DNA from: Akkermansia sp.
GTDB lineage: Bacteria; Verrucomicrobiota; Verrucomicrobiia; Verrucomicrobiales; Akkermansiaceae
Assembly: GCA_045615585.1 (NCBI GenBank)
Contig: JAZLFB010000280.1
Location: 6,219-70,218, forward strand
Reading direction: 5' to 3'
Length of the DNA stretch: 64,000 bases
Made by a program: the position numbers and the translations under genes. Every line of letters begins with the position of its first letter. Position 1 is the first letter of the stretch. The notes below the pieces were generated by a model, which was not told the origin of the DNA, ran no database searches, and was given only the letters and a program-made list of their open reading frames with translations. Shown in pieces: positions 1,366 to 59,086 of this stretch.

Positions 1366-1582
1366 AAGTTGAAGGTTGAAATTACAAAGTGCGGCACGCT
1401 GACGCGTGCAGGAGGACGATGAACGCAAGGCGTTGGCGGCAGATATAAAAAGGATTAGCGCTTAAGTATATAGGTGGAGCTTATTTGGAAGTCTTGAAAA
1501 CGCTTTGCGTTTTATTTTCATCTCTGCGGCGTCAGCCGCACGAATGTTACAATTTCAACTTTCAACCTACAACTTTCAACTT
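1366..1582. repeat. Heptamer/hairpin inverted-arm element, copy 1
   Basis: Left arm: AAGTTGA-AGGTTGA-AATT then hairpin GCACGC-TGAC-GCGTGC (1394-1409). Right arm: hairpin TGCGGC-GTCA-GCCGCA (1525-1540) then TTCAACT-type heptamers to 1582. Confidence 0.85.
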
Positions 1583-1587
1583 CTTCT

Positions 1588-4500
1588 TTACCGCGCTATC
1601 AGCGCGGTAAGGTGTTCCCTAACGGGTTTGGTGAGGCGGGCTATGCCGAAACAGGTGGCGGTGCCTTTGAGGTGGTCGTCACAGCCGGGCAGACAGCCCA
1701 GATGCTCGCGCACGGCGGCGGCCCCCGCCAACCATTCGCTGTTGGGGATGTCCGACCAATCGCGCGTGCCTTTCGTGCGGAGACGCACGGTCGGCTGCCC
1801 CGACAGGGTCAGCACGCGGCGGAAAGTACCGTCAGCCAAAGGTTCGGGCGTGTTCACCAGCGTTCCCTGTGCCAGCAGTTGCGTGATGAGTTCCGCCATG
1901 TGTCGGCGAACAGTCGGGCGCATGCCACCGGGGCAGATGTCACCTAAACGGCTCAGCAGATACGGCTCCGTCACAGGACCCTCCACCCCTACAAACGCTT
2001 GCAGCAAGCGGCGAAGTGAGGCGTCGTTCATCTCGAAAAGCGGGGGCAACAGGGTTTCGGGGCGGTATTCGCGGTACTCCTCCGCCACCAAGGGGGCGGC
2101 GGGGGCGGTACGTTCCGGCACGGGCGCGGCGGGTACAGGCGTTGCCGTTTCCGCCGCAGCACCCACCAGCTCGGGCAGTTCAGGCGGTGTGGGCGGTCCC
2201 ATCTCCATGAAGGCACGCAACTGTTTATCCAGCCGTTCGAGCACCGCATTCGGGCGGCGCCACCAGTCAATCGCCCACAGGTGAATGAGCCGCCAACCCA
2301 GACCCGACAACACGGAGGGGCGCAGCACGTCGCGATCACGCGCGGTGTTGGAAGCGGCATAAGCGGCACCGTCCAGCATGATACCCGCCAGCGTCTCACC
2401 CTCGTGTTCAGGGTGTTCCACCGCCAAATCCAAGCGATAGCCCGACACACCCACCGCCGTGCGGCAGTTCCACCCGCGTTCCTTGAGCCGCACCGCCACG
2501 GCTGCCGCCAAAGCATCGCGTTCCGCGGTTTCGGTGTGGGTCGACAGATAGGCAGCCGCCCCGCGGCGGGCGTAGTCCAAAAAGTCGTGCAAATCCGCCG
2601 CGCCGCGCGCATTCGTGCGGTTCAGGTTGATGTCCTCCGGCACCATGGAGGTGAACACGTGCATGGCACAGCGGGCACGCGTGACCGCCACGTTGAGTCG
2701 GCGCTCACCGCCGCTCATGTTCAGCGGACCGAAGTTCATGGATATCTTGCCCTTGGCATCGCGCCCGTAGGTGGTGGAGAAGTAGATGACACCGCGTTCA
2801 TCACCCTGCACGTTCTCCAGATTCTTCACGAACACGGCTTCGGGGTTATCCTCGGCAAAGTAGGGTTCCAGCGCATCATCCTTGGCGCGTTCCGCTTCCA
2901 ACATGTCCTCAATCAACGCCTGTTGCTGCACGTTAAAGGTGACAATGCCGATGCTGGTCGCCTCGGTGTAGCGGAAATCCTTGGCTTTGAGTGTCGCCAC
3001 AACATGAGCCACCAGCTGCCGCGCTTCCTCTCTGTTCACGCGCTTGGTTGCCCCGCTTTCGTAGACACCGCCCGTGTGGTGGTAGGTGAGTGCCGCATCC
3101 CGCATCATCGGCGCGGGGAAGGTGACGAGCCTGTCCTCATAATATTTTCTATTGGAGAAGGCAATCAGGCTTTCGGACTTGCTGCGGTAGTGCCATGCGA
3201 GATTCATTTCGGGGATGCCGCAGGCGCGGCATTCATCGAGAATGCTTTCCATGTCGGCCTCTACGGTGCTGTACTCATCCTCCGCCCCCTTGCTGCGGGC
3301 AAAGAAATTGGTGGGCGGCATCTGGCGGGGGTCGCCCACAATGACGGCACTCTTGCCGCGACCAATGACGCCGATGGCATCCCACACGGGAATCTGCGAC
3401 GCCTCATCGAAAATCACCACGTCGAAAGGAGCCGTCTCCGTAGTCAGGTATTGGGCAACGGAGAGCGGGCTCATCAACAGACAGGGTTTCAGCAGCGGGG
3501 TCACGTTGGGCAGCTCGCGCAGCAGGCGGCGCAACGGCATGTGGGCGCGCTGCTTGGACAGCTCGCGTTGCAGGAGAGACGTTTCCTGCCCGAACTCCGC
3601 AATCTTGGCGGCGCGGGTCGTGAGCAGGGTGCGGATATGCTCGCTCGTCTTGCGCAACAGCGCGCCGTCCTTCTCCGCAAACTCCGCCATGCGCGATTCA
3701 TGCACCTGCGGCGAGAAGTTTTTGAGCACGTCCGATGCATCCGCCACCGCCGCCACGCGCTTTTGTGCCAGTTGCAAGGCTACGGCGATTTCCAAATCCG
3801 CCGCCGCAATGCTGCCGTCGGAAAGAGCCGCTGCCATAGCACCGCAGCCCTTGGCGCGGGCGGTTTCCGCCATCCGATTCCACAGAGCCAGTTCATGCCA
3901 TTGCTCGCGCTGCGCCAGCAGAGCTTCCGCCCATGCACTCCCCTGCCCGTCGGCAGCAGCGGCAAAATCAGCCACAGGAGCAGCCAACAGGCGGGTCAGC
4001 GTCTCCTGCAACGCGGCAACGGCCGACTCATGCTGTGCCATCGTCTGCACGGCCTGTCCCACGCTGTCGGTCGGGCGGGGGATGCGTGCTTTATCCGCAG
4101 ACAGTTCCGCTAACACCTTTTCATCAGCAGGAGTCAGACGGTGCAGCAACGCCGAGTCTGCGGCGGCACGCTCGACATCGGCAGCGGTAGCCGCTTCACC
4201 CTTGCGGAAATCGGGCGGCAGCGGGCTGACATCCATAGCGTGCAGCTCCTGCAAGGCATCACGCAGGGCGACAAGGGTCGTCAAATCGTTCAGACAGTCA
4301 GGCTTGCGGGTGGTCAGAGCCTGACCTTTCAGCACGCGGGCAAGGCGGCGCATGCCGAACCAACGGACGATGAAGTTCGAGACGGACAGCTCGCGACAAT
4401 CGCGCAGCCATGCATCCAGCAGCGGCTCGGCTAACGTGCTGTCAGGGTACGGCAGGGTGAGCTTACCCCGCAACGCACGGATATGGTCGGCGCGGGAAAC

Positions 4501-7323
4501 AAGCTCCTGCAAAACAGCCATGCTTCGCCCTGCCTGTTGCGGAGCAAAGGCAAGGGTTGCCTTGTCGGGCTGCTGCATCCACGCATGAAGCACAGGGCAC
4601 AGGCGACCCATCTGTTCGCGGTCGGCGGGCAACTCGCGGTGCAGCGCATCCCCCGCAGCGGCAAGGCGGCGATTTTCCTCCGCAAAGCACTGTAACGTCT
4701 CGGCAAGCTCCGCTTCATCGGCGACCCCGCATGCCGTTCGACCGAAAGAAGCCCGCACGGCGGGCGGCACCTGCTCCGTCACACGGAAGTGGCGCACCAG
4801 CTCCCGCGCCGTCTCCGTCAACTCCGCTCGGCGTTCGCGGGTGAGCGTCACAGGGTCATCCGGCAGAGGTTGCGGCAAAGGCGTTTTGGGGGTTGAAGCC
4901 AACAGCTCCACCTCTCCGTACAGCGTGCCGCCGTCGAGGAACGGCTTGTGCATCTCACGCGGCAGCTGATTCAGGCGTTCCCGCAGGTTGGTCATGGCAT
5001 CAACCGACTCGCCCCAGCGGTCGGGTGTTTCCCCCTTGGTCACCGCCGCCACCGCAGCACGGAACTGCGCCAAGGCCTCTTTCTTGTTGGCCTTGTGGGA
5101 GTGCAGCTCCAGACAGAAATCATCCAGTCCGATGCGTTTCAGACGATGGTGTACCACCTCCAAAGCAGCGGACTTTTCCGCGACAAAGAGCACCGTCTTG
5201 CCGTGTCCGAGACAATGGGCAATCATGTTGGTGATGGTCTGGCTCTTACCTGTTCCGGGCGGGCCAATCAGCACAAAGCTCTTGCCGCGCGCAGCAGCCA
5301 ACACCGCCGAAAGCTGCGAAGAATCCGCAGAGAGCGGCGTGAAAACCTTTTCTGCCTCCACCTCGTTATCCAGCGTCGCGGGGTCGGGGAAACCGCCCTG
5401 TGCGGGGAAGGTGCTGCGTTTTTCCGCCGCAATCTGCGCCACAATGGGATTTTTCAGCAAATCGGCGCGGCGGTCTGTCAAGTCCTTCCACATCAAATGC
5501 TTGGTGAACGAGAAAGTACCCAGCGTGCAGCGTTCATCCACCTCCCAACCGGGCTGTCCGCTCACCGCCTTACGCACCATGTTGAAAATCTGCGGCACAT
5601 CCACCCCTGCTTCATCCGTGGGCAGCTCACCCTCTAATTCGGGTATCTGCAACTCGTATTCCATGCGCAGATACTCCAGCAGCGTCAGGTTGAAGCGCGA
5701 TTCCTCATCCGCCCCGCGCAGGGTAAAGCCCGCCTTGACACTCGGGCGGGTCAGCGTCACGGGAATCAGCAACAACGGCGCGTAGTAGGGCTTGTTATCC
5801 ACACCTTTGCGGTACCATTTCAGGAACCCGCATGCCAGATACAGGGTATTGGCACCGCTCTCCTCCATCTCGCGGCGGGTGGAAAGATACAGCCCCTGCA
5901 AACAGCGTTGCAGCTCCTCCTCATTCAGCGCAGCGGTCAGCTCGCGCTTGGCGAACATGGCTTCCACACAGTCCGCAATACGTTGGTGCTCGTAATCGGA
6001 CTGCCCGCCCTTGTAGTAGGTCGTCAACGCCGTCCAAAAGGTCTGCGGCAGCGGTTTCACACGGAACGCCGTGCCCTTGGACAGCACATCCTCCAGCTCG
6101 CCCACATCGGACAGCAGCAGACCGAGCTGTCGTTTACCGTCGGGATTGCAGTTGAGCAGGTTGTTGCGCAGCGATAAATCCAACAGCTTGAGCTGCCAGT
6201 TTTCCATGCGTCCGTGCGGGGCGGCGGTCACCAGAGCCTCTGCCCCCGCCGCCGCTGCCACATACTGACTGCCTGTGCCGCCCAAAATGGGGTGAATGCT
6301 ACATTCATGCCACAACAGGCGCAAATCCAAGGCGACAAAGAAATCGTCATCCGTGAGTTGCTCCAGTTCGGACAGCCCCAACTCGGCAGCATGCGCAAAC
6401 GGAGCGGGGGTACAGCCCGCTTCGCCGTTCACGGCGGTGGTTTCCAGCAACAGGATTTCCCCCTGTTTCACCAAGTTTCGCACGGTAGCCACCTGTGCCA
6501 CCTTGGGTTTCGGCAGGGCGGCGGGTTTCAACCAGATACCCAAAAAGGCGTGCCCCTCTATCAGCATCACAAGGGGGTTCAAGCCCATGCGCGACACCGC
6601 CGCCGCCAGCATCAGGGTCGAATCCAAACAGGTAGAGCACCCGCCTTTCAGGATTTGAGAGGGCGTGCGCACGCGTTGTCCTACGCCGACTTCCATCCAG
6701 CTCTTGGGCGGCAGACTGTACAGGATGTGGTAGGCCGCCATCGTATTCCACAGGGTCTGCAACTGCCCCGACAGCTGTTCTGCCGTGCCGTTGTACCCGC
6801 ACCACGCCGACGGCTCACCCGCCGCGCCCAACGCCGTCTGCGTGTCGCGCAACAGGGTTTCCACGCCCTCATCTTCGGGCAGCGTGAGGGCTGCCAACAA
6901 TTCAGGGAACTCATCCCCGCCCGCCCATGCGTTGTGAGCCAGCCAAACAAACGAGCTTTCCGCCCGCGCCAACAAACTGCCGTCAGCGGCTAACAGGCTC
7001 ACCGTCACCTTGCCCTGCTCTTCTTCCTCCAACGCCAACAGGCGGCCTTCATCAAAACGGGGGGTAGCGGGCAAACGGAACGTGACAGGCTTGCCGCCTT
7101 CAACGGTAATCCCCTCCTGCACCGTTTTCTCCACATAATCGGGGCTGTATTCTATGCAAAGGCTCACGTTCTCCAAGGTTTGAGAGGCGGTGATGCCGAT
7201 ATCCCACAGCACGGAACGACCGTTCCGCAGATAGACCAGCGAGGAAAATTTGAGCGCGGTCAGGCGAAGTTCTACATTCGACAGGGCATCGGCAGGGGGC
7301 GTGCGGGGCAGCGGCTCTTGCAT
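1588..7323 (-). CDS. DUF4011 / SF1 (DNA2-NAM7-like) helicase / Vsr-like nuclease fold / DUF3320 protein; Hhe-like defence candidate
   Basis: WQLKLLDLSLRNNLLN (DUF4011), GPPGTGKSQTI (Walker A), FDVVIFDEASQ (Walker B), VGDPRQMPP, WHYRS, ENVQGDERG, RRLNVAVTRAR, then GYRLDLAV...DG...RDRD...LGW. Confidence 0.88.
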   Translation of the reverse strand: MQEPLPRTPPADALSNVELRLTALKFSSLVYLRNGRSVLWDIGITASQTLENVSLCIEYSPDYVEKTVQEGITVEGGKPVTFRLPATPRFDEGRLLALEEEEQGKVTVSLLAADGSLLARAESSFVWLAHNAWAGGDEFPELLAALTLPEDEGVETLLRDTQTALGAAGEPSAWCGYNGTAEQLSGQLQTLWNTMAAYHILYSLPPKSWMEVGVGQRVRTPSQILKGGCSTCLDSTLMLAAAVSRMGLNPLVMLIEGHAFLGIWLKPAALPKPKVAQVATVRNLVKQGEILLLETTAVNGEAGCTPAPFAHAAELGLSELEQLTDDDFFVALDLRLLWHECSIHPILGGTGSQYVAAAAGAEALVTAAPHGRMENWQLKLLDLSLRNNLLNCNPDGKRQLGLLLSDVGELEDVLSKGTAFRVKPLPQTFWTALTTYYKGGQSDYEHQRIADCVEAMFAKRELTAALNEEELQRCLQGLYLSTRREMEESGANTLYLACGFLKWYRKGVDNKPYYAPLLLIPVTLTRPSVKAGFTLRGADEESRFNLTLLEYLRMEYELQIPELEGELPTDEAGVDVPQIFNMVRKAVSGQPGWEVDERCTLGTFSFTKHLMWKDLTDRRADLLKNPIVAQIAAEKRSTFPAQGGFPDPATLDNEVEAEKVFTPLSADSSQLSAVLAAARGKSFVLIGPPGTGKSQTITNMIAHCLGHGKTVLFVAEKSAALEVVHHRLKRIGLDDFCLELHSHKANKKEALAQFRAAVAAVTKGETPDRWGESVDAMTNLRERLNQLPREMHKPFLDGGTLYGEVELLASTPKTPLPQPLPDDPVTLTRERRAELTETARELVRHFRVTEQVPPAVRASFGRTACGVADEAELAETLQCFAEENRRLAAAGDALHRELPADREQMGRLCPVLHAWMQQPDKATLAFAPQQAGRSMAVLQELVSRADHIRALRGKLTLPYPDSTLAEPLLDAWLRDCRELSVSNFIVRWFGMRRLARVLKGQALTTRKPDCLNDLTTLVALRDALQELHAMDVSPLPPDFRKGEAATAADVERAAADSALLHRLTPADEKVLAELSADKARIPRPTDSVGQAVQTMAQHESAVAALQETLTRLLAAPVADFAAAADGQGSAWAEALLAQREQWHELALWNRMAETARAKGCGAMAAALSDGSIAAADLEIAVALQLAQKRVAAVADASDVLKNFSPQVHESRMAEFAEKDGALLRKTSEHIRTLLTTRAAKIAEFGQETSLLQRELSKQRAHMPLRRLLRELPNVTPLLKPCLLMSPLSVAQYLTTETAPFDVVIFDEASQIPVWDAIGVIGRGKSAVIVGDPRQMPPTNFFARSKGAEDEYSTVEADMESILDECRACGIPEMNLAWHYRSKSESLIAFSNRKYYEDRLVTFPAPMMRDAALTYHHTGGVYESGATKRVNREEARQLVAHVVATLKAKDFRYTEATSIGIVTFNVQQQALIEDMLEAERAKDDALEPYFAEDNPEAVFVKNLENVQGDERGVIYFSTTYGRDAKGKISMNFGPLNMSGGERRLNVAVTRARCAMHVFTSMVPEDINLNRTNARGAADLHDFLDYARRGAAAYLSTHTETAERDALAAAVAVRLKERGWNCRTAVGVSGYRLDLAVEHPEHEGETLAGIMLDGAAYAASNTARDRDVLRPSVLSGLGWRLIHLWAIDWWRRPNAVLERLDKQLRAFMEMGPPTPPELPELVGAAAETATPVPAAPVPERTAPAAPLVAEEYREYRPETLLPPLFEMNDASLRRLLQAFVGVEGPVTEPYLLSRLGDICPGGMRPTVRRHMAELITQLLAQGTLVNTPEPLADGTFRRVLTLSGQPTVRLRTKGTRDWSDIPNSEWLAGAAAVREHLGCLPGCDDHLKGTATCFGIARLTKPVREHLTALIAR

Positions 7324-8292: not shown

Positions 8293-8415
8293 AATAATGT
8301 AATGGGGTTCAGCGCAAAAGGGGCACAACGCCCCGCGCTGCCCCTGTTCTACAGCGAAACGACGGGGAAGTCAAGGAGATAGAAAGGCACAGGGCGGGAA
8401 ATGGATGTCATAAAG

Positions 8416-8679
8416 AAGTTTGAAGTTTGAGGTTGGAGGTTGGAAGTTTTGAGTTAGGCGCGGCTTCGCCGCGCGGAATTTTCGCCCGCGGTGCTAACAG
8501 CGACATGCCGTTTCGGTTGCCTTAGCCTGTAACACCCGAAACGCGGGTGATATGCCGTTAAATAATGTTGCCGTCTGAACTCATCGAAAGATGCAGCAAA
8601 CGCTCTGCGTTTCAGAATACTCGCACGCGCAGCGTGCCTAATTTTATACTTCCAACTTCCAACTTCCAACTTCCAACTT
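8416..8679. repeat. Heptamer/hairpin inverted-arm element, copy 2
   Basis: Left: AAGTTTG x2, AGGTTGG x2, hairpin GCGCGGC-TTC-GCCGCGC (8458-8474). Right: hairpin GCACGC-GCA-GCGTGC (8623-8637), then CTTCCAA x4 (8649-8676). Confidence 0.88.
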
Positions 8680-9240
8680 CCCCATGTACTCCTCCACGGC
8701 GGGGTGGAGCCAGCCTTGCGGCACAGGGGTACCCGCCTGTAGGGCAGCACGGATGGCAGAGGCCGAGGCGGGGTGGTCGCCGCAAAGGAAGGTACTTTGC
8801 ACTCCCTCCCTCGGTTGGGGGGCGGTGCCACGGTGGTAGACAATGAAATGCAGATGCTGCACCAGATACTCATAACGCCCCCAGCGGTGCAGCTCCTCCC
8901 ACTGGTCGGTACCCAGCAGCCAGTACAGGCGGGCGTGAGGGTAGAGCTGTGAAAAATGCTCAACCAAACGCCAGCTCCAGCTGGGCGGCGGCAGTTTCAA
9001 ATCCACATCCGAAACCTCCGCCCACGGCAGCTCCGCCGTGGCAAGGTGCAGCATCTCCAAGCGTTCCGCATCGGAGAAGCGACAGGTTTTACCCTGTTTG
9101 AAAGGGGAACAAGCGGCAGGCAGAAACAGCACCTTATCCAAGCCACAGGCGGCTTGGGCGGCGGCGGCAATGGCGGTATGCCCCGTGTGAACAGGGTCAA
9201 ACGAGCCGCCGAACAGGCAGATATGGGCCGCAGGCACCAT
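8644..9240 (-). CDS. nadD: Nicotinate-nucleotide adenylyltransferase
   Basis: FGGSFDPVHTGH, SPFK, LLGTDQ...WG and SASAIR motifs; start taken at ATG 9240. Confidence 0.93.
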   Translation of the reverse strand: MVPAAHICLFGGSFDPVHTGHTAIAAAAQAACGLDKVLFLPAACSPFKQGKTCRFSDAERLEMLHLATAELPWAEVSDVDLKLPPPSWSWRLVEHFSQLYPHARLYWLLGTDQWEELHRWGRYEYLVQHLHFIVYHRGTAPQPREGVQSTFLCGDHPASASAIRAALQAGTPVPQGWLHPAVEEYMGKLEVGSWKLEV

Positions 9241-9244
9241 GCCG

Positions 9245-15574: not shown

Positions 15575-17458
15575 ATGGATACCGCTGCGCCCCGCGTTCC
15601 GCTGTTACTCCGTTGGTCTTGGCTCACCGCCCTTTTGGGCGGTGTTTTCATGGCCATGGCTTTCCCGCCCTACGACCTCGGCAATCTGGTGTGGCTGGGG
15701 CTGATGCCCCTGCTCTGCGTGCTGTGGTGCGGCAAACGCGGCTGGTGGCACAGCTTCCGCATGGGTTGGCTGTACGGCATGGGCTGGTACTGCGTGAGCT
15801 TTTGGTGGATTCACGAGGTCGGCAACGTCTTTTATATCCCCGGCTGGCTGTTCACAATAGTGGCCTTTCTGCCGCTGATGGCGGTTTACGCCGTCCTGCC
15901 CGCACTGTGGGCGGGCATCATGAACACGCTGCTGCGCCCCTCGTTGCTCCCCCTGCCCGCTGCGGGTGACAAAAAGCCCGCTGCTGCCAAAGAGGCACGC
16001 AAGGCATGGGCCTTTGCCGACATGCGCTCCACCCTGCGCAGCGCCGTGGGCGGCGGTGCCCTGTGGGTGGTGGTGGAATGGTTACGTGCCCACGGCACGC
16101 TGGGTTTCAGCTGGAACAGCATGGGCATGGCCCTATACGACGGTCTTTCCATGGTGCAATGGGCGGAGTTTGTAGGCACCGCCGCGCTCGCGTTCATCCC
16201 TGTGTGTACCTCCGTCATTCTGTGGTGCGCCGTGCGCCGCAGCTGGGTGCAGTTCCGCGCCGTGGGGCACGGCGTCTCGCCGTGGGATTTCTACGGCTGT
16301 GCCATCGTCCTTTTCGGTCTTTTTCTCGGCGGGCTTGCCCTCTCCAAAGCCTACGCCCCCGGTGTCATGATGCGCCGCGACAGCGTGATGCAGCTGCCCG
16401 TGCTGGCCATCCAGCAGAATGAGCCGCAGCAGGAGCGCATGGAGGAAGGACCCTTCCGCCCCCACCAATACGGCGTGTATCTGCGCGCCACATGGGCTGC
16501 TTTTAACGAGATTCAGCAAGACACCGTGCGCCGCGCCATGCAGAACACCGAGGTGGGGCTGACCCAACAGCTGCCCGTGTGGGTCGTGTGGCCGGAGAGT
16601 GCTTTGGGTGCCCCCCTGCACCGCAACACCGCAACGGGCAAACTGCGTGAAGATGATGCCCAAACCACAGAGGTTTTCTTAGGAAACGAAGGTCTTCCCC
16701 TTCTCCGCCAACGTGTACAGGAAATCGGCGGGCAGCCTTTCGTGCTCTTCACGGGTGCCGATGAATGGCTGTGGACACCCGATGCCGCCGCGGAGACAGG
16801 CTACCGCTACGGCGGGCTGTTCAACTCGCTGGCCGTTATTCCCGACGGCTTCGACAGCATCACCACCGTTTCCAAGCAGCACCTCATGCCCTTCGGCGAG
16901 TATGTGCCGCTGGCCAATGATGTGAAAGTGGTGGCCGACATCTACAGCCAAATGACAGGCACGCAGGTGGGCGAGGGCATCCACGCGGGTACAGGCGATG
17001 AGCCGATTGCCGTTCCTGTCCCCGGTACGGATGAAACCGTGGGCGTGATTCCCGCCATCTGCTATGAGGACACCGTGGGCGACCTGCTCACCAAGTTTGT
17101 CCGTAAAGGTCCGCAGGTGATTGTGAACGACACGAACGACGCGTGGTTTTGCGACTCCTGCTGCGGCGAGCAACAAGCCCGCAACGCCGCTTTCCGCTGC
17201 ATCGAGCTGCGCCGCCCGATGATACGCGCCGCCAACAAGGGCGTGACCTGTGCCATTGCGCCCAACGGCGCGTTCATCCACGCCCTCCGCAAAGCGGACG
17301 GCGACCCGCACACGGCAGGCTACAGCTACGCCGTGCTGCCTGTAGACCGCAACGCGGGCTTCACCCTCTACGCCCTCTTCGGCGACTGGGCGGTCATCCT
17401 CTGCGCCCTGCTCGCCGCAGGGCTGAGCATACCCGCCCTGTGCAGGAAAAAGGCTTGA
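15575..17458 (+). CDS. lnt: Apolipoprotein N-acyltransferase
   Basis: N-terminal TM bundle; nitrilase triad VVWPESA (E), KQHLMPFGEYVP (K), ICYED (C); TNDAWF and RAANKGVT. Confidence 0.93.
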   Translation: MDTAAPRVPLLLRWSWLTALLGGVFMAMAFPPYDLGNLVWLGLMPLLCVLWCGKRGWWHSFRMGWLYGMGWYCVSFWWIHEVGNVFYIPGWLFTIVAFLPLMAVYAVLPALWAGIMNTLLRPSLLPLPAAGDKKPAAAKEARKAWAFADMRSTLRSAVGGGALWVVVEWLRAHGTLGFSWNSMGMALYDGLSMVQWAEFVGTAALAFIPVCTSVILWCAVRRSWVQFRAVGHGVSPWDFYGCAIVLFGLFLGGLALSKAYAPGVMMRRDSVMQLPVLAIQQNEPQQERMEEGPFRPHQYGVYLRATWAAFNEIQQDTVRRAMQNTEVGLTQQLPVWVVWPESALGAPLHRNTATGKLREDDAQTTEVFLGNEGLPLLRQRVQEIGGQPFVLFTGADEWLWTPDAAAETGYRYGGLFNSLAVIPDGFDSITTVSKQHLMPFGEYVPLANDVKVVADIYSQMTGTQVGEGIHAGTGDEPIAVPVPGTDETVGVIPAICYEDTVGDLLTKFVRKGPQVIVNDTNDAWFCDSCCGEQQARNAAFRCIELRRPMIRAANKGVTCAIAPNGAFIHALRKADGDPHTAGYSYAVLPVDRNAGFTLYALFGDWAVILCALLAAGLSIPALCRKKA

Positions 17459-17462
17459 AGAG

Positions 17463-17722
17463 AAGTTGAAAGTTGAAGGTTGAAATTGTAGAATTCGCGT
17501 GGCTGTCGCCACGTAGATGATAAAGAAAAGCAAAGCGTTTGCAAAGGCTTTTGTCGAATCCTGAAAACTGCTATTTATATCAGGCTGTCGGGTGCAATAG
17601 CACAAGATTCCTAAACGGCGTGTTGCATTTAGCCTTGCGTTCGATAATTCCGCGCACGCAGTGCGCCTAAATTCTCACTTCCAACTTCCAACTTCCAACT
17701 TCCAACTTCCAACCTCCAACTT
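17463..17722. repeat. Heptamer/hairpin inverted-arm element, copy 3
   Basis: Left: AAGTTGA x2, AGGTTGA, hairpin CGTGGC-TGTC-GCCACG (17498-17513). Right: hairpin GCGCAC-GCA-GTGCGC (17652-17666), then CTTCCAA x5 and CCTCCAA (17678-17719). Confidence 0.88.
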
Positions 17723-17726
17723 CCCC

Positions 17727-17755
17727 TTGCTTCCCCCTCCCTTTTCCGCTATAAT
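17727..17755 (+). promoter_or_regulatory. Sigma70-type promoter of panE (probably leaderless)
   Basis: TTGCTT (17727-17732), 17 bp, TATAAT (17750-17755); the ATG lies 6 nt downstream. Confidence 0.7.
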
Positions 17756-17761
17756 GAGGGC

Positions 17762-18679
17762 ATGAAGATTGCTATTCTGGGTGCAGGGGCTTTGGGCTGT
17801 TACTACGGTGCCAAGCTGGCGGCGGCGGGCAATGATGTTACATTCATCGTCCGTTCGGCGTATGATGCCATCAAAGCCAAAGGCTTACAGGTCAACAGCG
17901 TGTACGGCAACGTGCATCTGCCCGCGCCCTCCGTCTGCCGCACCCCGCAGGAATGCGGTCCTGTCGATTTGGTCATCGTCAGTTGGAAAACCTGTAGCAA
18001 CGAACATTTCTCTACTGCCCTGCCCCCGCTGCTGAAAGAGGGGACGGAGGTTATCACCTTCCAAAACGGCATGGGCAATGCCGAAGAAATCGCCCGCTTT
18101 GTGCCTCAGCAGAACGTCTACATCGGGCTGTGCTTTGTGTGCTGCATGATGGATGAGCCGGGCATCATCACGCATCTGGAGGGCGGCAACATCCAAGTCG
18201 CCCCGCTCAGCGGCACGGAGGAAGGCGAGCAACGCGCCGCCGTCTTTGCCGAGATTCTGGAAAAAGCAGGCATCCCCGCCCGCGCCTTCCGCCATACGGA
18301 GCAGATTCTGTGGACGAAGCTCACGTGGAATATCCCCTTCAACGGTCTGTGCCTTGCTTTGGGCGGCATCAGCGTGAGACAGCTCTTCACCATGCCCGAA
18401 CAGGTAAAACGCAGCCGCGCCATCATGGAGGAAGTCTGCAAAACCGCCGAGCTGCGCGGCTTTCCCCTGCCGATGGACATCGTGGAATGGCAGATGGACC
18501 GCACCTCGAAAATGGGCGATTTCATCCCCAGCAGCGCGGTGGACTACAACCGCCGCCGCCCTGTGGAATACGAAGCCATTTGGGGCGAGCCCCTGCGCCG
18601 CGCCCACGCCGTCAACGCCCCTGTGCCGCATTGGGAGCAACTGGCCGCCGATATCCGCAGCCGCCTGAACATGAACTGA
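17762..18679 (+). CDS. panE: 2-dehydropantoate 2-reductase
   Basis: KIAILGAGALGCYYG, FQNGMG, WTKLTWNIPFNGL and PSS..D...RRPVEYEAI motifs. Confidence 0.92.
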   Translation: MKIAILGAGALGCYYGAKLAAAGNDVTFIVRSAYDAIKAKGLQVNSVYGNVHLPAPSVCRTPQECGPVDLVIVSWKTCSNEHFSTALPPLLKEGTEVITFQNGMGNAEEIARFVPQQNVYIGLCFVCCMMDEPGIITHLEGGNIQVAPLSGTEEGEQRAAVFAEILEKAGIPARAFRHTEQILWTKLTWNIPFNGLCLALGGISVRQLFTMPEQVKRSRAIMEEVCKTAELRGFPLPMDIVEWQMDRTSKMGDFIPSSAVDYNRRRPVEYEAIWGEPLRRAHAVNAPVPHWEQLAADIRSRLNMN

Positions 18680-18682: not shown

Positions 18683-19588
18683 ATGCCCGCCCGCCCCATC
18701 CGCCGCCGTCTGCAACGCGCCCTCACCTGCGTGGGGGCTGCGGCGGTGTTGGCGCTGTTCGGAGCGGCGGTGCAGCCATGGACAACAACCCTGCACCAAC
18801 GCGAGCTGGCGGACGGTTTGAGCTACCCCTCCCCCAAGGTAGACAAAAAAGACGCACTCTCGCAACAGCTCTCCTTCTTCACACTGGGCGGTCTGCGCAC
18901 GCTAGCGGCGGAAGTTCTGGCCATGGATGCCACCGCCGCGTGGCTGGATAACGACTGGCCGCGCGCCCGCAAGCGTTGGGAGAGCATCACCACCCTCTGC
19001 CCGCGCCGTATCAATTATTGGGCGCGCGCCGCCCGCGATATGTCTAAGAATGCGGTGGCAGCCACCAACGCCCGCCGCGATTTGGATGCCCACGAACGCG
19101 CCGTAATGAGCCGCGATTATCTCGACACCGCCGAGAGCTTTCTGCAACGCGGCATTGCCAACAACCCGCAAAGCGCCCTGCTGCGGCTGGAGCTGGCCGC
19201 CTACTACGAGGATTTGGCGCGCCGCCCGCAGTTCGCCAAGGCGGCGGAAGCCTACCGCGATGCCGTGGCACACGGTGCCTCGCCCATGTACCTGCGCTGG
19301 GAGTTCTACAACCTGTGCCGCATCCGAGGGCGCGAGAAAGAGGCATGGGAACTCGGTCGCCGCCTGTTCAACGAGGAACGCCACCGCAGCCCCTCCCTGC
19401 GCTGTCTGCTCTTTGTGTTGCAGGCCTCCCTGCCCGACATTCCCGCCGCCGAGCGTCTGACACCCACGCAGCTGTTCAAGGACGAAGCCTCCGCCCGCCG
19501 ACAATTAAACATGTTCCGCCGCAACGACCTACGATTCCCCACGCGCGGAATCGATGCGTACCTTGCCACACCCCCCGACACCCTGTAA
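18683..19588 (+). CDS. Conserved hypothetical helical-repeat (TPR-like) membrane-anchored protein
   Basis: One TM segment, then helical repeats (AESFLQRGIANNPQSALLRLELA); co-linear with panE and xerC. Confidence 0.7.
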   Translation: MPARPIRRRLQRALTCVGAAAVLALFGAAVQPWTTTLHQRELADGLSYPSPKVDKKDALSQQLSFFTLGGLRTLAAEVLAMDATAAWLDNDWPRARKRWESITTLCPRRINYWARAARDMSKNAVAATNARRDLDAHERAVMSRDYLDTAESFLQRGIANNPQSALLRLELAAYYEDLARRPQFAKAAEAYRDAVAHGASPMYLRWEFYNLCRIRGREKEAWELGRRLFNEERHRSPSLRCLLFVLQASLPDIPAAERLTPTQLFKDEASARRQLNMFRRNDLRFPTRGIDAYLATPPDTL

Positions 19589-19590
19589 CC

Positions 19591-23799: not shown

Positions 23800-23836
23800 A
23801 AAAAACACCCATCTGACGAGAACGTCAGATGGGTGT
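23800..23836 (-). terminator. Intrinsic terminator (14-bp perfect stem)
   Basis: ACACCCATCTGACG-AGAA-CGTCAGATGGGTGT with an A tract to its left; terminates the flavodoxin gene. Confidence 0.8.
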
Positions 23837-23905
23837 CCGAAATTCCACACGGTTTTACCCGCACTTAAATTCACACTTCAAACAGCAAACATTTTCCATC
23901 CTGTT

Positions 23906-39336: not shown

Positions 39337-42232
39337 AAATGTGGAAAGCGTTGAAGTTCAGGCTGGCATTACCGCCCTGAGAGGTGGTGCTGACACGCAC
39401 ATACTTGGCGGTGGGGGGCATCTTATCAAACTCCAGGCGGTGGTAGCCCTTGTTGCCCGCATCGGGCAGCGACATCAGCGTCTCCCACGTCTCGCCGTCG
39501 GAGGACACCTCCAGCACGCCGCCCTTGGGACCGGCGGGCGCCATCACAATGCAGCCGATGGTGGCTCGCTTGGGCAGAATGACTTTCAGGTACTCCGTCT
39601 TGGAGGATTCCGTCTGAATCTTGCCGCCGCGCGGGGTCAGCGCCGCTGCGTGCTGAATGATGTGCTTCTCATCATCACCATAGGTGCTCAGCTGCAGCAT
39701 CGCGCCCTCGGAAATCAGCTTGCCCTTGTATTCGGGGATGTCGGGCAGCGACACCTGCGGGGTCTGCCCCACCGCCGCCGTGTACTTGTGGAACAGCTTT
39801 TCATCCCCCAGCATTTCGGCGGACTGAATCATGGCGGCCAGCACCATCTCGCGGTCCTCACAGGTTTCCATGTCCTTGTCCACAGCCTCCAGGAAACGCT
39901 TGGACATGGGCTTGTTCTCCGTCATCACGTTGTTGACCGCCCACACCAGCATCTGGTGGAAATGCGGCTTCTTCATCATGGTTTCGCGCACCATGTCAAG
40001 GTACTTCTGCTTGTGGACGGTGGACTTATCCAACGCCTTGAACTGCGTATCGAGCACGCGCTCGTACTTCCAGCCCTTGTCGTCAATCTCGTCCAAGTTG
40101 GCAAAGAACTCCTCATACGTCTCCAGCTTCTTGGCGGGGGCGCGGAACAGGGGCAGCATGGAGGGGTACACCTCCTCCATCAGGTAATCACCCGCGCGGG
40201 CGGGGTGCTTGGGGATGAGCGCCGTGCAGAGGTTGTGGTGCAGCGCCTGCCACATGGCGGGGTTGCGCTTCAGCTTCTTTTCCACCGCGCCCATGTACAC
40301 GCGCCACACAGGCAGGTTGAGGGGCTGAATCGCCAGCGACATCTCATAGAGCTTCACGGCATCCTTGGTGTTGCGGCGTTCCACCATCACGCTGGCCAGC
40401 GAGCCGATGAGCTGCGAGCGGCGCGTCTTGTCCTTTTCCTGATACATGGCGGTCATCATCTGGAACGCGCTCCATGAATACTCACCGCCGAAGGACCAGT
40501 GCGGCGTGTGCTTCTCGCTCACGCTGTTGCAGCAATGCCACTGACCGTCCAGATACACGGTGTAGGCACAGTGACCGGGTTCGCCCATTGTGACGGCGGG
40601 CACGCCGTTGGAAACGGCACCCGTGGTACCGAAGTGCGACAGACCGCCGCACACGGCACCGATATCGCGCGTCATCTTGGCCATGTTGTTGGGGTAAATG
40701 ACCTTGTAAGGCTCGTAATACTTGGAGCTGAAAATCACATCACCGAACTCGTTGAGCGGCAGATACGGCACGCGCCCCGCCAAGCCCTTGTACTGTTCAT
40801 CGGGCACGGAGCAGTTATCGCGCGCCCAGCGCATGGTGGTGGCACTGCCGAAGGCGTTTTCACCCTTCCAACCGCCGATGAAGTGCAGCAGCCAGTCGGG
40901 CTGCTTCCAGAACGAGCTATTGAGCAAGTCCTGCTCAATGCCCTCGGCAAACAGCAGATAACGCTCTACCGCCAACATGTAAATGCTGCCCTTTTCCTGA
41001 CGGCGTGCGCCGCGCTTCTTTTCGGGCTGGGGCATGCCGATGGATTCGTACTTGTCCATCTCGGCTTCCGTCAGCTCCTTGCCGTCGGCATACCAGCCGT
41101 TGCGGGCGAACTCCACGGCAATGGCGGCGGCCATGCGTTCCTTCATCTTCTCCTGTGCCTCGGTGGTGTCGGGGCGGTCTTTGCGCTTCAAATCGGCAGC
41201 GCGGAACTCCGCCACCATCGCCAGAGCCACTTCGGGCTTGGTCATTTCACCATCGTACACAAAGCTGCCGCACCATGCGGAGTTGTTGAGCAGCTTCGAC
41301 AAATCCTTGCACACGGCGGGGTCGCGCATCACGATACCCAGCTGGTTCAGGTCGGCACGGTTGAGCAGCTCCCACTGGGCCACCATCAGGCAGTTTTCGG
41401 GGTCGCTCAAAAAGCGTTCCACATTGCCCTCATCCACATGGCGCAGGCGGCTGCGGATGGCGGAAGAAAGGCGCTGTTTCAGCACGCGGGGCTGTTTCCA
41501 CTCCTGCCCCGTGCTGCTCTTCTGCACCACCACGACCTCCTCAGGGATGGGTTCTTCTTCCTCCTCCGCTTCGGGTTCGGGCTCCGGTTCGGGTTCGTCC
41601 GTCTTTTCGGGTTCAGGTTCGGGTTCGTCCTCGCGCTGCCAGTCATCCACCGTCACCTTTTTCTGCGGCTTCTTCTCTGCCTTCACCACGGGTTTCTCCG
41701 CAGGGGGAGGCGGGGGATTCAATAGCTTGTACAGGTAGATACCGCCGCCGATGAGCACCGCCAGAATAATGAGCCACAGCCAACCGGGTACACCGCCGCC
41801 GGAGTTGTTACGCAGCGTGCGGGCGCGCGGGTCAATGGGGTGGGCAATACCGCGGCGCACCGCCTTGCGGGGGGCAGCGGCGGGCACCTCTCCCTGCGGG
41901 GCGGGCGCGGCGGCTTCCGCAGGGGCGGCATCGGGTACTTCGGCCAGCGTCAGGCTGTTATGCCCCACGGTGTAAACCACCCCCGGCTGCATCAGTTCCG
42001 CCTGTACGGCACGTTCCCCCTGCTGCACGCCGTTGGAGGAACCGAGGTCGGAAATCTGCACGCCCTCCTCCGTTGTGATGACGGAGCAATGCACGGCGGA
42101 CAGGCTTTCATCCTCTGCCAAGGCAATTTCACATTCAGGCGAACGCCCGATACGGTAGCCGGAACCCACCTCCTCTCCCAAGGGATAAAGAAGCGTTTCT
42201 CCGGCGCTGTTGGTTACACTTAAGGCTTTCAT
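39320..42232 (-). CDS. FHA-domain membrane protein with transglutaminase-like core and C-terminal discoidin-like domain
   Basis: IGRSPECEIAL...LSAVHC...DLGSSNG (FHA), one TM helix, PE-rich linker, AVCGGLSH...PGHCAY, C-terminal LEVSSDGETWETL...AKYVRV. Confidence 0.75.
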   Translation of the reverse strand: MKALSVTNSAGETLLYPLGEEVGSGYRIGRSPECEIALAEDESLSAVHCSVITTEEGVQISDLGSSNGVQQGERAVQAELMQPGVVYTVGHNSLTLAEVPDAAPAEAAAPAPQGEVPAAAPRKAVRRGIAHPIDPRARTLRNNSGGGVPGWLWLIILAVLIGGGIYLYKLLNPPPPPAEKPVVKAEKKPQKKVTVDDWQREDEPEPEPEKTDEPEPEPEPEAEEEEEPIPEEVVVVQKSSTGQEWKQPRVLKQRLSSAIRSRLRHVDEGNVERFLSDPENCLMVAQWELLNRADLNQLGIVMRDPAVCKDLSKLLNNSAWCGSFVYDGEMTKPEVALAMVAEFRAADLKRKDRPDTTEAQEKMKERMAAAIAVEFARNGWYADGKELTEAEMDKYESIGMPQPEKKRGARRQEKGSIYMLAVERYLLFAEGIEQDLLNSSFWKQPDWLLHFIGGWKGENAFGSATTMRWARDNCSVPDEQYKGLAGRVPYLPLNEFGDVIFSSKYYEPYKVIYPNNMAKMTRDIGAVCGGLSHFGTTGAVSNGVPAVTMGEPGHCAYTVYLDGQWHCCNSVSEKHTPHWSFGGEYSWSAFQMMTAMYQEKDKTRRSQLIGSLASVMVERRNTKDAVKLYEMSLAIQPLNLPVWRVYMGAVEKKLKRNPAMWQALHHNLCTALIPKHPARAGDYLMEEVYPSMLPLFRAPAKKLETYEEFFANLDEIDDKGWKYERVLDTQFKALDKSTVHKQKYLDMVRETMMKKPHFHQMLVWAVNNVMTENKPMSKRFLEAVDKDMETCEDREMVLAAMIQSAEMLGDEKLFHKYTAAVGQTPQVSLPDIPEYKGKLISEGAMLQLSTYGDDEKHIIQHAAALTPRGGKIQTESSKTEYLKVILPKRATIGCIVMAPAGPKGGVLEVSSDGETWETLMSLPDAGNKGYHRLEFDKMPPTAKYVRVSTTSQGGNASLNFNAFHIYEKSH

Positions 42233-42437
42233 GGCGGTCTTTCGGGCAGCGAATACAACGCTGCGGTGGCTCATAGTGTAACACTAGCACAAAACAGGCG
42301 GAAAAGCAACAGAGAAAGTGACCGCAGCTCCCGCAAAAGAGAAAACAATGTTTTTGCGCTGCTGCCTTAAACTTTTCCTTGCACGGCGGGGGGATAGTTG
42401 TTAGTATAGACAGACCGAAAACTTTCTTTTCTCTGCT

Positions 42438-54516: not shown

Positions 54517-54541
54517 GGAATCATCCTCTTTGTTCCTTCAG

Positions 54542-54608
54542 GCGCGGGCCAAGCCCGCGCGGAACTTGAACTTTATAAATTATAAATTATAAATTCTAAA
54601 TTATAAAT
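54542..54608. repeat. Solo heptamer/hairpin arm (AT-rich variant)
   Basis: Hairpin GCGCGGGC-CAA-GCCCGCGC (54542-54560), then TTATAAA x3, TTCTAAA, TTATAAA (54573-54607), ending 2 nt before a stop codon. Confidence 0.8.
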
Positions 54609-54609
54609 C

Positions 54610-56013
54610 TCATTCCGGCTTAATGTGTTCCGCCATGCGGTAGGCGGCTTCGGGCACATACTCCTTCCACTGCTCATCACCCGACTGAATCATGCGGATA
54701 ATGTCGCGCGGGGTTTGGAAGAGGAGTTTCTGGTTGAAGTACGGCACCTCAATCACGTTGCCGCTTTCACGCAGGTGGCGGTAGAGGTAGTGGTAGGCTT
54801 CGGGCACGCGGTAGGTGCCGGCAGTCACAAACTCACCTGTCTTGCGGTTAATCCACGGCGTGACGTAGAACTTGGTCTTGTTGCGGAAGATAAGCCCCAT
54901 GCTGGTGAGAATACCGCCGGGGGTGTTCTCCGCCCACTTGTCCTTAAACAGTTCGTTGAGCAAGCCGATGGAGAGAGCAATGGCAATCGGCTCCTTCGTA
55001 AAGCTGTTGAGCAGCGCGGAAATCTTGTCAAAGTGCGTGATGTTCGTCACCATCACCGTCTTACCCATAGCGGCAAGGGCGTCGGCACGGTCCATGAAGT
55101 CCAGCAAATCAACATCACCGCTGCCGTGCAGGAGGTTGGAAAGGGAGATTTCGCAGATGTCGACGGAGCGCTTTTGCTGCTCTTCCGTCAGGCTTTCAAA
55201 GAACTTGGCACGCACGCTGTCCATCATCTCCAGATGGATGTTGCAGAGCGGCAGGAAAGAGCCGCGCATCAGCACGATGGGACGCTTGTAAAGCAAGTCG
55301 GCAGGCTGGGCAACAGTGCCGTCGGGGCAGAACATGGTGGCTTCACTCTGACCGCTGCGCACGAGCTGCAACGCCAGAATGCGGTTATCGAACATGCTGA
55401 AACCGTGCCCGCTGAACTTCATGTAGTCGATTTCGTAGAACGCGCGGTCAAGGTTTTCGCCCACGGCTTCCACGAATTCATCCATGTGGTCGCGCTTGTA
55501 GAAGAGAGCGTGCAGCACGTTCACGCCGATGATACCAAGCACGCGCATTTGGAAATCGTGGTCGGGGATGAGGAGACGGACGTGCATCACGAAGTCGCTG
55601 GGGGGCAGCTCGGGCTTCAGCTGGAAACGCACGCCAATCCACGCAAACCACGGGCCGTTGTCGCGGTAGCCCTTGCATTTCACGGTGTTACAGAAGGCAA
55701 AGAAGCAGGTATCAGCCCCGCGCTTTTCGCTGAGACGGTCAACCACCTTGGCGTATTCGGATTCCATCATCTGCTCCAGACGCTCCTCAGACACATAGCG
55801 GCGGGCGGTGCCGTACAGGGAGTCGCTGACGGTCATATCGTAGGCCGAGATGGTCTTGGCCACGGTGCCCGCTGCGCCGCCGGCACGGAAGAACCAGTTG
55901 GCTGTTTCCTGACCCGCGCCGATTTCAGCAAAGGAGCCGTAGAGTTTTTTATCGAGATTGATGGTGAGGGCCTTTTCCTGTGTGGCGGCCAGTGTTTGAG
56001 TTTCGGAGGACAT
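54610..56013 (-). CDS. Conserved protein with C-terminal nucleotidyltransferase-like fold
   Basis: KAL.INLD..YGSFAEIGAGQE..FF.AGGAAGTVAKT.SAYDM N-terminus; RPIVLMRGSFLP..NIH in the C-terminal half. Confidence 0.7.
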   Translation of the reverse strand: MSSETQTLAATQEKALTINLDKKLYGSFAEIGAGQETANWFFRAGGAAGTVAKTISAYDMTVSDSLYGTARRYVSEERLEQMMESEYAKVVDRLSEKRGADTCFFAFCNTVKCKGYRDNGPWFAWIGVRFQLKPELPPSDFVMHVRLLIPDHDFQMRVLGIIGVNVLHALFYKRDHMDEFVEAVGENLDRAFYEIDYMKFSGHGFSMFDNRILALQLVRSGQSEATMFCPDGTVAQPADLLYKRPIVLMRGSFLPLCNIHLEMMDSVRAKFFESLTEEQQKRSVDICEISLSNLLHGSGDVDLLDFMDRADALAAMGKTVMVTNITHFDKISALLNSFTKEPIAIALSIGLLNELFKDKWAENTPGGILTSMGLIFRNKTKFYVTPWINRKTGEFVTAGTYRVPEAYHYLYRHLRESGNVIEVPYFNQKLLFQTPRDIIRMIQSGDEQWKEYVPEAAYRMAEHIKPE

Positions 56014-56049
56014 GGGAAGGAAATGGGATTTAAAATTTATATCATGCTT

Positions 56050-58653: not shown

Positions 58654-58747
58654 TTCGCTGCCCTTAACTCTAGCACAAAGCAAGCATCATGGCAAGAACG
58701 AAGAAACGGAATAAGCGGGAGAAAGTTGTTACCGCCAATAGAGCAAA

Positions 58748-59086
58748 TCGACAAATGGGGAGTTTGTAGGGATGTTTGAAGTTTGATGTTTGATGTTTGA
58801 AGTATAAAGTTCGCCGCGCTACGCGCGGTAGATTCCTTGCTCCACGCTTACTGCCCCGCCGCTGAAAAGCGGCGGATTTACCCCGTATTAAACCAAGCTT
58901 TTTACCGAAGCCATGCTACGCGCTTTGCGTTACCCGCATTTCGGGTGAAACATCACAATGTTCCATAACGGTGGGCGAGTTCCGCTCTGCGGTCTGAAAT
59001 TCCCGCACGCCGCAGGCGTGCCTAAATTTGCACATCAAACTTCAAACATCAAACTTCAAACATTTCGACAAATCCCCATTTATCGA
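58748..59086. repeat. Heptamer/hairpin inverted-arm element, copy 4 (about 85-bp imperfect terminal inverted repeats)
   Basis: Left: TCGACAAATGGGGAGTTTGTAGGG, (A/T)GTTTGA-type heptamers, hairpin CCGCGC-TAC-GCGCGG (58814-58828). Right: hairpin GCACGCC-GCA-GGCGTGC (59005-59021), TCAAAC(A/T) heptamers, TTCGACAAATCCCCATTTATCGA. Confidence 0.9.

Follow-up and report, generated by a model that had tools for sequence, protein, structure and literature searches.

A strain-variable family of small non-coding repeats bounded by inverted heptamer arrays in an uncultured Akkermansiaceae lineage

A 64,000-nucleotide stretch of an Akkermansia sp. genome (NCBI GenBank assembly GCA_045615585.1, contig JAZLFB010000280.1, positions 6,219 to 70,218 of the forward strand), referred to here as the window and the scope of all window counts below, contains four repeat elements that we named E1 to E4. 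We consider it fairly likely that they are small repeats, non-coding and non-autonomous, whose numbers have grown within a single uncultured Akkermansiaceae lineage, and that they belong to a cross-phylum class of sequences bounded by inverted heptamer arrays. The family is multi-copy, and close strains differ by gain or loss of whole members. The original prediction, made from the sequence of the window, had placed four elements of one shared layout in this stretch and had proposed a structure-selected, non-autonomous element needing a factor encoded elsewhere. That proposal is supported by further copies, solo arms, element-less alleles, covariation, and the lack of a mobilising open reading frame (ORF) in the window. 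The three points on which it was open to failure were thus settled in its favor, as more copies, strong covariation and presence/absence polymorphism were all found.

A mechanical scan of the window for at least 2 consecutive NTYMAAC units found eight arrays and no more, and Tandem Repeats Finder gave identical arrays. The arrays form four inverted pairs (1368-1381/1553-1566, 8418-8445/8650-8677, 17465-17485/17679-17720, and 58774-58801/59034-59061); the left array of every pair is built from GTTNNAN units and the right array from NTYMAAC units. Each element consists of two inverted arms around a variable core and measures about 220-345 bp; all four, with their common layout, were found at the coordinates claimed earlier. 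Alignment of the eight arms in one orientation, from core to end, revealed an ordered module of ~80-90 nt made up, from the core outward, of an inner hairpin, an AT-rich spacer, a GC hairpin, a linker, and the heptamer array. The inner hairpin is conserved in sequence as (A)ACGC-YYT-GCGT(T), the spacer is 11-14 nt long, the GC hairpin has a stem of 6-8 bp and a loop of 3-4 nt, and the terminal array comprises 2-7 heptamers. The linker between the GC hairpin and the first heptamer opens with C(T/G)AA; eight arms have a 12-nt linker and two an 11-nt one. The existence of this linker had been predicted correctly, and the earlier range of 10-16 nt was too loose. Spacer and linker separate the arms into two classes, A and B, such that E1 is B/B, E2 is A/A, and both E3 and E4 are B/A chimeras. 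Terminal inverted repeats are present, the arms (60-82 nt) being 74-80% complementary within and between elements (pairs I1-I4). Solo arms were sought as a check, and two, both overlooked earlier, are present in the window. The 64 kb therefore holds six loci of the family, four paired elements and two solo arms, all of them intergenic, with the following features.

E1, 1367..1583: complete element with B/B arms, flanked by the thioredoxin start (1321) and the helicase stop (1588-1590, minus strand).
E1, left side: array 1368-1381 (GTTGAAG GTTGAAA); GC hairpin 1394-1409 (GCACGC TGAC GCGTGC); inner hairpin 1422-1434.
E1, right side: inner hairpin 1497-1513; GC hairpin 1525-1540 (TGCGGC GTCA GCCGCA); array 1553-1583.
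E2, 8415..8681: complete element with A/A arms, overlapping the nadD 3' end (minus strand, stop 8644-8646).
E2, left side: array 8415-8449; GC hairpin 8458-8474 (GCGCGGC TTC GCCGCGC).
E2, right side: inner hairpin 8598-8612 (AAACGC TCT GCGTTT); GC hairpin 8623-8637 (GCACGC GCA GCGTGC); array 8648-8681.
E3, 17460..17724: complete element with left arm B and right arm A, beginning 2 nt past the lnt stop and ending directly before the panE promoter-like site.
E3, left side: array 17461-17485; GC hairpin 17498-17513 (CGTGGC TGTC GCCACG); inner hairpin about 17530-17542.
E3, right side: GC hairpin 17652-17666 (GCGCAC GCA GTGCGC); array 17677-17724.
E4, 58745..59090: complete element flanked by the PBP1 gene, which is divergent and starts at 58683, and by the ORF at 59113.
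E4, left side: array 58771-58811; GC hairpin 58814-58828 (CCGCGC TAC GCGCGG).
E4, right side: inner hairpin 58982-58992; GC hairpin 59005-59021 (GCACGCC GCA GGCGTGC); array 59032-59063.
Solo arm, 54542..54608, plus strand: GC hairpin GCGCGGGC CAA GCCCGCGC (54542-54560), 11-nt linker, (TTATAAA)x5 (54573-54608).
Decayed solo arm of class A, 23833..23891, plus strand: GAAATTCC, unpaired former GC hairpin, linker CTTAAATTCACAC, TTCAAAC AGCAAAC (23877-23890).

The GC hairpins were compared across 12 arms, ten read directly and two taken from contig ends of relatives, and pairs were counted by script on hand-registered stems (MAFFT lost the hairpin register). The six core pairs were Watson-Crick in 72 of 72 cases, with no G-T pair, among 8 distinct stems. 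When the 3' halves were dealt among the arms by permutation, an average of 40.6 pairs formed and not one of 10,000 permutations gave 72, so that the covariation check proposed earlier returned perfect pairing far beyond chance reassortment. The stems at 8623, 17652, 1525 and 17498, with their compensatory swaps, were all as quoted in that proposal, as were the five cGNAg triloops (GCA three times, GAA once, GTA once). Within one element, the left and right GC hairpins were alike at only 1-2 of 6 stem positions and are therefore not inverted-repeat copies of each other. Every GC hairpin is maintained as its own palindrome. On the outward-reading strand, 11 of the 12 arms have a loop of the form G-N(1-2)-A, and the loop-closing pair is C-G in every arm. 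The absence of wobble pairs together with the strand-specific loop would fit recognition of folded DNA or of a cruciform better than selection on RNA only. The GC hairpin is an unusually clean natural example of a structure in which pairing is selected, sequence is not, and the loop is strand-specific, and it offers a handle for finding its reader enzyme.

The window itself was present in no public run, and an exact-match query with its PanE protein found no record. Relatives were sampled from four gut or faecal metagenome runs of the best-matching kind, which contain about 40% of sampled window words; their contigs were mapped on the window, and homologues of the flanking proteins were annotated Akkermansia or Akkermansiaceae. 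Depth over the elements was 3-18x that of the flanks in these four related metagenomes. For E4 it was 922 compared to about 50 in run X1, 894 compared to about 80 in X3, and 58 compared to 7 in X7, and across the elements in X1 it was 200-920 compared to about 50 in the flanks. Many of the relatives' contigs match one arm and then run into unrelated sequence. The further copies that had been predicted are thus indicated both by the excess depth and by contigs that share an arm and then diverge, and multiplication of the family is concluded from this copy number and the diversity of flanks. The relatives' short-read contigs often end in or beside arrays (L123:1-100 and others). These data describe an abundant, strain-variable repeat family in a gut Akkermansiaceae lineage, whose repeats break short-read assemblies.

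Element-less alleles had been suggested as something to look for at the four junctions, and they were found in relatives at all four.

E1-less allele: flanks joined 1366 to 1584, in run X5 (1367-1583 missing).
E2-less allele: flanks joined 8420 to 8674, in run X1 (8421-8673 missing).
E3-less allele: flanks joined 17454 to 17717, in runs X1 and X7.
E4-less allele: flanks joined 58754 to 59131, in runs X5 and X3 (58755-59130 missing).

Direct reading of the E3-less allele was possible in contig L129, whose strain of origin has a PanE 98% identical to that of the window; this contig has ...AAAAAGGCGTGAATCAACTTCCCCTTGCTTCC... at the site of the window's 257-bp E3. The nadD/fkbp junction of a relative with 94% NadD identity carries a different, decayed element. 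Synteny upstream of panE is kept only among the closest strains, and comparison of junctions therefore works only within the lineage; there were no arrays in two panE neighbourhoods (L125 and L128, 20 kb each) with PanE at ~70% identity. A scan of the metagenome contigs with an arm-specific pattern gave 3 matches, all unrelated.

The window is ordinary chromosome, with rnpA, yidC, lpxC-fabZ, nadB, ptsI, lnt, panE, nadD and a class A penicillin-binding protein (PBP) gene among others. No transposase, reverse transcriptase, RAYT (Y1_Tnp) or four-helix-bundle gene was found among the ~48 window ORFs scanned. This bears out the earlier statement that the window has no transposase, and because no mobilising gene is present in it, the elements are non-autonomous. 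The sole tyrosine recombinase of the window (19315-20496) is syntenic with panE in relatives also and looks like a housekeeping Xer protein.

Whether folded as RNA or as DNA, each element brings its two arrays together into a long terminal stem enclosing the core, and the GC hairpins fold locally. Fold z-scores were -4.2 for E1 RNA, -5.3 for E2 RNA, -3.5 for E3 RNA and -10 for E4 DNA. A search against Rfam 15 gave no match at the gathering threshold and none within the elements up to E 5; the same scan found no rRNA in the window.

To place the elements in a wider setting, species-representative genomes were scanned for 3.5 heptamers, which returned at least 119 arrays. The matches listed were mainly from Bacteroidota, Verrucomicrobiota, Cyanobacteria, Chloroflexota and Acidobacteriota, and the source lineage was not among them. 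An inverted partner lay within 1 kb of 20 of the 119 arrays among the matches listed, compared to 0 in shuffled controls. The interiors of those 20 pairs were 11-86 nt long in 19 and 445 nt in one (L081). The 445-nt interior is an ORF whose protein belongs to the '23S rRNA intervening sequence protein' family (PF05635, E 1e-33) and is also matched by PF22296 bAvd. By jackhmmer and profile search, L081 was the only one of the 119 listed loci and the window to contain a four-helix-bundle ORF.

We also approached the class from the protein side with tblastn against plasmids, which yielded 28 records; ten were fetched, giving 11 cassettes with L081. The four-helix-bundle ORF was flanked by short tandem arrays in all 11 sampled loci, including ten of the ten fetched from plasmids. 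These arrays were inverted in nine of the ten fetched loci, or in at least 10 of 11 with L081. At L135 (276-975, Pseudanabaena), the arrays adjacent to the ORF are direct (AAAAGCT and AAAAGCC, 14-16 copies each), and an inverted GCTTTTA x11 lies farther upstream. The array period was 7 in 9 of the 11 cassettes and 8 in the other 2, and each cassette had a unit unique to it (GGTGACA, GTAGGGA, GGGTGTA, AAAAGCT, GGGAAAA, GGCAGAA, GAGGACG and others). The Azospirillum cassette (L139) lies inside the large-subunit (LSU) rRNA gene and is therefore a true intervening sequence (IVS). Cassettes on cyanobacterial plasmids lie within operons (L131, L134, L135, L132). In Anabaena sp. 90 and Pseudanabaena galeata the cassette is flanked by cas6 and cas4, in Picosynechococcus by cas10 and cmr3, and in Nostoc edaphicum by the beta and alpha ribonucleotide reductase genes. 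In Coxiella, the IVS has tandem heptamers in its stem region, their number varies among strains, and the stem is cut by RNase III (PMC4990558). A query with the four-helix-bundle protein gave no match in viral contigs. No account of array bracketing of four-helix-bundle genes as a general rule was found in the searchable literature; if the regularity holds at scale, it would connect a large orphan protein family with rRNA intervening sequences and the cyanobacterial short tandemly repeated repetitive (STRR) arrays and would make their mobility testable.

On the strength of this shared architecture, we interpret the window elements as members of the four-helix-bundle cassette architecture that have hairpins and no ORF. 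A single strand, either a read-through transcript or unwound DNA, would fold when its two arrays pair, giving a long terminal stem and a multi-hairpin core. The array stem would then be cut by RNase III as in the 23S rRNA IVS, removing the insert from the RNA, and such processing would render insertions harmless at gene ends and between cistrons, where the elements sit. The GC hairpin could be the handle for a structure-specific enzyme encoded elsewhere, and since stem sequence is irrelevant and the loop is strand-specific, such an enzyme would be expected to recognise a folded single strand or a cruciform. Within the class, the four-helix-bundle 'IVS protein' gene is the cargo known best; the window elements would carry non-coding hairpin modules in its place.

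The four-helix-bundle protein is a relative of Avd, the accessory protein of diversity-generating retroelements (DGRs). A broader proposal, which we put forward with considerable doubt, is that inverted ~7-nt arrays mark one widespread, undescribed class of mobile cassettes that includes the IVS, the dispersed PF05635 genes in Cyanobacteria, Bacteroidota and further phyla, and the elements described here, and that the four-helix-bundle protein or a partner mobilises them by acting on folded nucleic acid with G..A-loop GC hairpins. To our knowledge, the purpose of IVS elements and of the PF05635 family has been an open question since about 1990. A single class of mobile cassettes, if true, would explain what both are for.

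Several observations weigh against our main reading. The E2-less and E3-less alleles both retain CAACTTCCCC, an 8-10-mer that the window has only in the arrays apart from these places, and in the E2-less allele the sequence is GAAGTT-A-CAACTTC, which is a stub of the stem base. The element-less alleles may therefore be internal palindrome deletions that left the base behind, which would prove loss and not insertion. Alternatively, the element may insert beside sequence that resembles its own heptamer. Within the window, CAACTTCC is confined to the E2 and E3 arrays, and the C-terminal tails of NadD orthologues vary too freely to date CAACTTCC relative to E2. Comparison of filled and empty alleles at E2 and E3 found no target-site duplication, in agreement with the original prediction, and the flanks are if anything inverted (GAAGTT / AACTTC); an (A/T)GGGGA motif stands immediately outside the E2, E3 and E4 arrays. 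No transposition event, donor copy or mobilising enzyme was seen. The link to the class rests on architecture and not on homology: the four-helix-bundle genes behind it come from other phyla, none from this lineage, and the GC-hairpin module was absent from all sampled four-helix-bundle cassettes. The earlier suggestion that such genes might lie between paired arms thus held in part, as they lie between short tandem arrays at 11 of 11 loci from other phyla and the GC-hairpin module accompanies none of them. In favor of the reading, 21 contigs from metatranscriptomes of a relative contain arms, and 19 of the 21 continue into other loci; these RNA data are thin, unstranded and possibly mixed with DNA, and the two metatranscriptomes hold about 5% of sampled words. 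Cleavage of the array stem by RNase III is borrowed by analogy.

These results allow more than one scenario. The elements could be host-serving repeats similar to REP (repetitive extragenic palindromic) and BIME (bacterial interspersed mosaic element) sequences, acting as mRNA 3'-end stabilisers, weak terminators or insulators, with their spread incidental. The intergenic position of all six loci and the strongly stable folds are consistent with this, as are two terminator-like hairpins (8623-8637 and 1497-1513) and the distance of the array from the stop codon of the gene running into it, which is 0-4 nt at four loci (E1, E2, E3 and the solo arm at 54542-54608) and about 15 nt, ahead of the real terminator, at a fifth (the decayed arm at 23833-23891). 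However, close strains are without an element at all four junctions, so no locus needs one. A T-run is missing behind most GC hairpins, only 2 element hairpins pass the terminator scan, and terminator-like sites in the region number 24 compared to 22.7 in shuffles. Adjacency to stop codons could also be explained by scarce neutral space: the lnt/panE spacer without E3 is 45 nt long, 35 of which are a promoter-like site, and the position of E3 may simply be the only tolerated one. We consider a host-serving role unlikely, and it would be compatible with a selfish origin. Another scenario, quite unlikely in our judgment, is that the elements are decayed four-helix-bundle cassettes, the arrays having been left after deletion of the ORF and the interior being degenerate filler. 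Their outer architecture is like that of all 11 four-helix-bundle cassettes, and many array pairs elsewhere, among the matches listed, have interiors of 11-86 nt. Nevertheless, hmmsearch with a profile of the 11 four-helix-bundle proteins gave no match in any of the six frames of the elements (the best window match, E 0.5, lies elsewhere), and the interiors are ordered, with modules common to arms at different loci and GC hairpins perfectly kept.

The heptamers are also -35-like (TTGAAA, TTGGAA, TTTGAA) and the linker -10-like, and the arms could be promoter modules that fire inward, the core yielding a small or antisense RNA. Inward sites are present at 17466-17494 (TTGAAA-17-TAGAAT, 10/12) and 8669-8641 (TTGGAA-17-TAAAAT), 4 of the 14 promoter-like sites of 20 kb fall inside elements that make up <4% of the stretch, and (TTATAAA)n gives repeated TATAAT on the opposite strand. 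By eye, however, the left side of E1, the left side of E2 and the right side of E4 are without an acceptable -10 or spacing. The heptamer varies freely among copies and in other phyla (GGTGACA, GTAGGGA, AAAAGCT), there is neither an Rfam match nor a conserved core, and the RNA data are unable to show start sites; we regard this explanation as very unlikely. Highly improbable, finally, is a link to retroelements, in which the GC hairpins would be DGR-type target marks and movement or rewriting would proceed through cDNA with Avd and a reverse transcriptase. The array architecture is common to genes of the Avd-related family, and the window stems, 6-8 bp long, GC-rich and free in sequence, with strand-specific G..A loops, resemble DGR hairpins (PMC3240598). 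Even so, the 4-nt GRNA consensus fits only 2 of the 12 loops (GACA and GAAA), most being triloops, and the window has no reverse transcriptase, template repeat or variable repeat; adenine-specific variation was not seen, though no search was directed at it.

Turning to individual loci, the outer inverted repeat of E4, AAATGGGGAnTTTGT, reaches beyond its arrays (pair I4). The stretch absent in relatives at this locus (58755-59130, 376 bp) exceeds the array-bounded part, 59064-59130 being missing too, and E4 may be a composite or nested element. The array of the solo arm at 54542-54608 comes within 1 nt of the stop codon belonging to the gene at 54610-56013 (minus strand), and contig L123 of a relative opens with an arm of the same heptamer type (TTATAAA). 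Class A arms carry at least 3 heptamer types (TTCCAAC, TTCAAAC and TTTATAA; L123:1-100 and relatives' contig ends), and the heptamer unit is therefore independent of arm class. The decayed arm at 23833-23891 scored 28.9 bits (E 4.7e-6, filters off) with a covariance model built from five class A arms only, a model blind to class B arms and to the TTATAAA arm. Its neighbors are the stop of the FMN-reductase gene (23906, minus strand) on one side and, on the other, the terminator hairpin of this gene (23806-23837). In an Akkermansia sp. metagenome-assembled genome from goat caecum (L038:3168-3400), a GTTTAAA/GTTTGAA array is followed by four tandem units, each consisting of GTGAAATT and a perfect GC hairpin, the stems all different (GCCC, GCTCGC, AAGC, GCCCCGC). 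This unit of GAAATT and a hairpin is similar to the window's class A arm and may therefore be a REP-like module shared among Akkermansiaceae.

The elements also change gene ends. NadD ends ...EEYMGKLEVGSWKLEV*, and its last nine codons and stop lie in the right array and linker of E2 (8644-8683, minus strand), so that the protein acquires a 9-residue tail from the array. The NadD orthologue at 94% identity ends ...EEYIKRKLNV*, likewise from heptamer-like DNA. Since both tails are read from heptamer or heptamer-like DNA, the repeats are rewriting the C-terminus of this protein. At 17727-17764, the panE promoter-like site reads TTGCTT-17 nt-TATAAT, its -10 ends 6 nt before the ATG, and a relative's RNA contig begins at 17758; from the closeness of the -10 to the ATG and the start of that contig, the panE mRNA is probably leaderless. 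Similarly, the RNA contig of the FKBP gene ends at 8324, which is 4 nt from that gene's listed start. Beside E1, the gene at 1588-7323 (minus strand) encodes a protein of 1911 residues that combines DUF4011 and a superfamily 1 helicase (AAA_11/AAA_12) with an MTES_1575 restriction-endonuclease-like domain, and by these domains it looks like a defence-type helicase-nuclease. This gene has a perfect promoter-like TTGACA-16-TATAAT at 7370-7343, and its last six codons make a 7-bp GC hairpin (1590-1608) just beyond E1. A TTCGGG repeat of period 6 and about 10 copies (41570-41627) lies within the gene for a 984-residue FHA-domain protein (39320-42274, minus strand) and is presumably a coding low-complexity tract.

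We compared the elements with known systems. Chance or an assembly artefact was excluded, and CRISPR, integron attC sites and retron msr/msd were considered and rejected. With 23S rRNA IVS/S23p (PF05635) cassettes the elements share inverted tandem-heptamer ends that pair into a long stem round a short interior, heptamers whose sequence varies from copy to copy, and sites at which RNA-level excision would render the insert harmless (rRNA helices in the cassettes, or intra-operon positions at cas6/cas4, cas10/cmr3 and ribonucleotide reductase subunits). In contrast to the cassettes, the window elements have no ORF or trace of one, and only they have the subterminal module of two hairpins. They also lie between protein-coding genes and not in a 23S rRNA helix, although many four-helix-bundle cassettes are outside rRNA as well, and RNase III cleavage is documented for the rRNA IVS whereas it applies to the window elements only by analogy.

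Like REP, BIME and REPIN sequences, the elements are extragenic, high-copy, hairpin-forming and non-autonomous, with units in inverted pairs (REPIN-like) and single. REP and REPIN sequences are believed to need an enzyme, encoded in single copy, with specificity for folded single-stranded DNA. Unlike REP elements, the window hairpins have a C...C(T/G)AA foot with no GTAG or CGTC tetranucleotide, and their stems are perfect, in 8 sequences, where REP stems are family-specific imperfect palindromes. REP elements are also without terminal heptamer arrays, and the window contains no RAYT gene among the ~48 ORFs scanned. Bacterial MITEs (miniature inverted-repeat transposable elements), too, are small, non-coding, multi-copy, strain-variable and intergenic with inverted ends; the window elements differ from them in having no target-site duplication, in ends that are arrays of variable unit and number in place of a fixed inverted repeat, in left and right subterminal hairpins unlike in sequence, and in that no parent insertion sequence is within the window.

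Cyanobacterial STRR and Beggiatoaceae TAACTGA arrays are intergenic heptamers of variable unit, found in Cyanobacteria and Bacteroidetes, with function unknown (PMC4679880). They resemble the window arrays in being intergenic tandem heptamers with a variable unit, but they are described as direct repeats near start codons, and the accounts of them report neither inverted pairing, hairpin modules nor a four-helix-bundle link. DGR target hairpins have a GC-rich stem of 7-10 bp in which pairing is required and sequence is free, with a strand-specific GRNA loop (PMC3240598). The window hairpins share the GC-rich, sequence-free stem and the strand-specific G...A loop, but their stems are shorter (6-8 bp) and their loops mostly 3 nt; the window has neither variable repeat, template repeat nor reverse transcriptase, and a DGR hairpin occupies one position only, at a gene's 3' end, in contrast to these dispersed repeats. 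The likeness to DGR hairpins, together with the kinship to Avd, is a lead and not a result. The family matches none of the known families tested, and its parts have precedents in the behavior of MITEs and REPINs, in the arrays of IVS and STRR, and in DGR-like hairpins.

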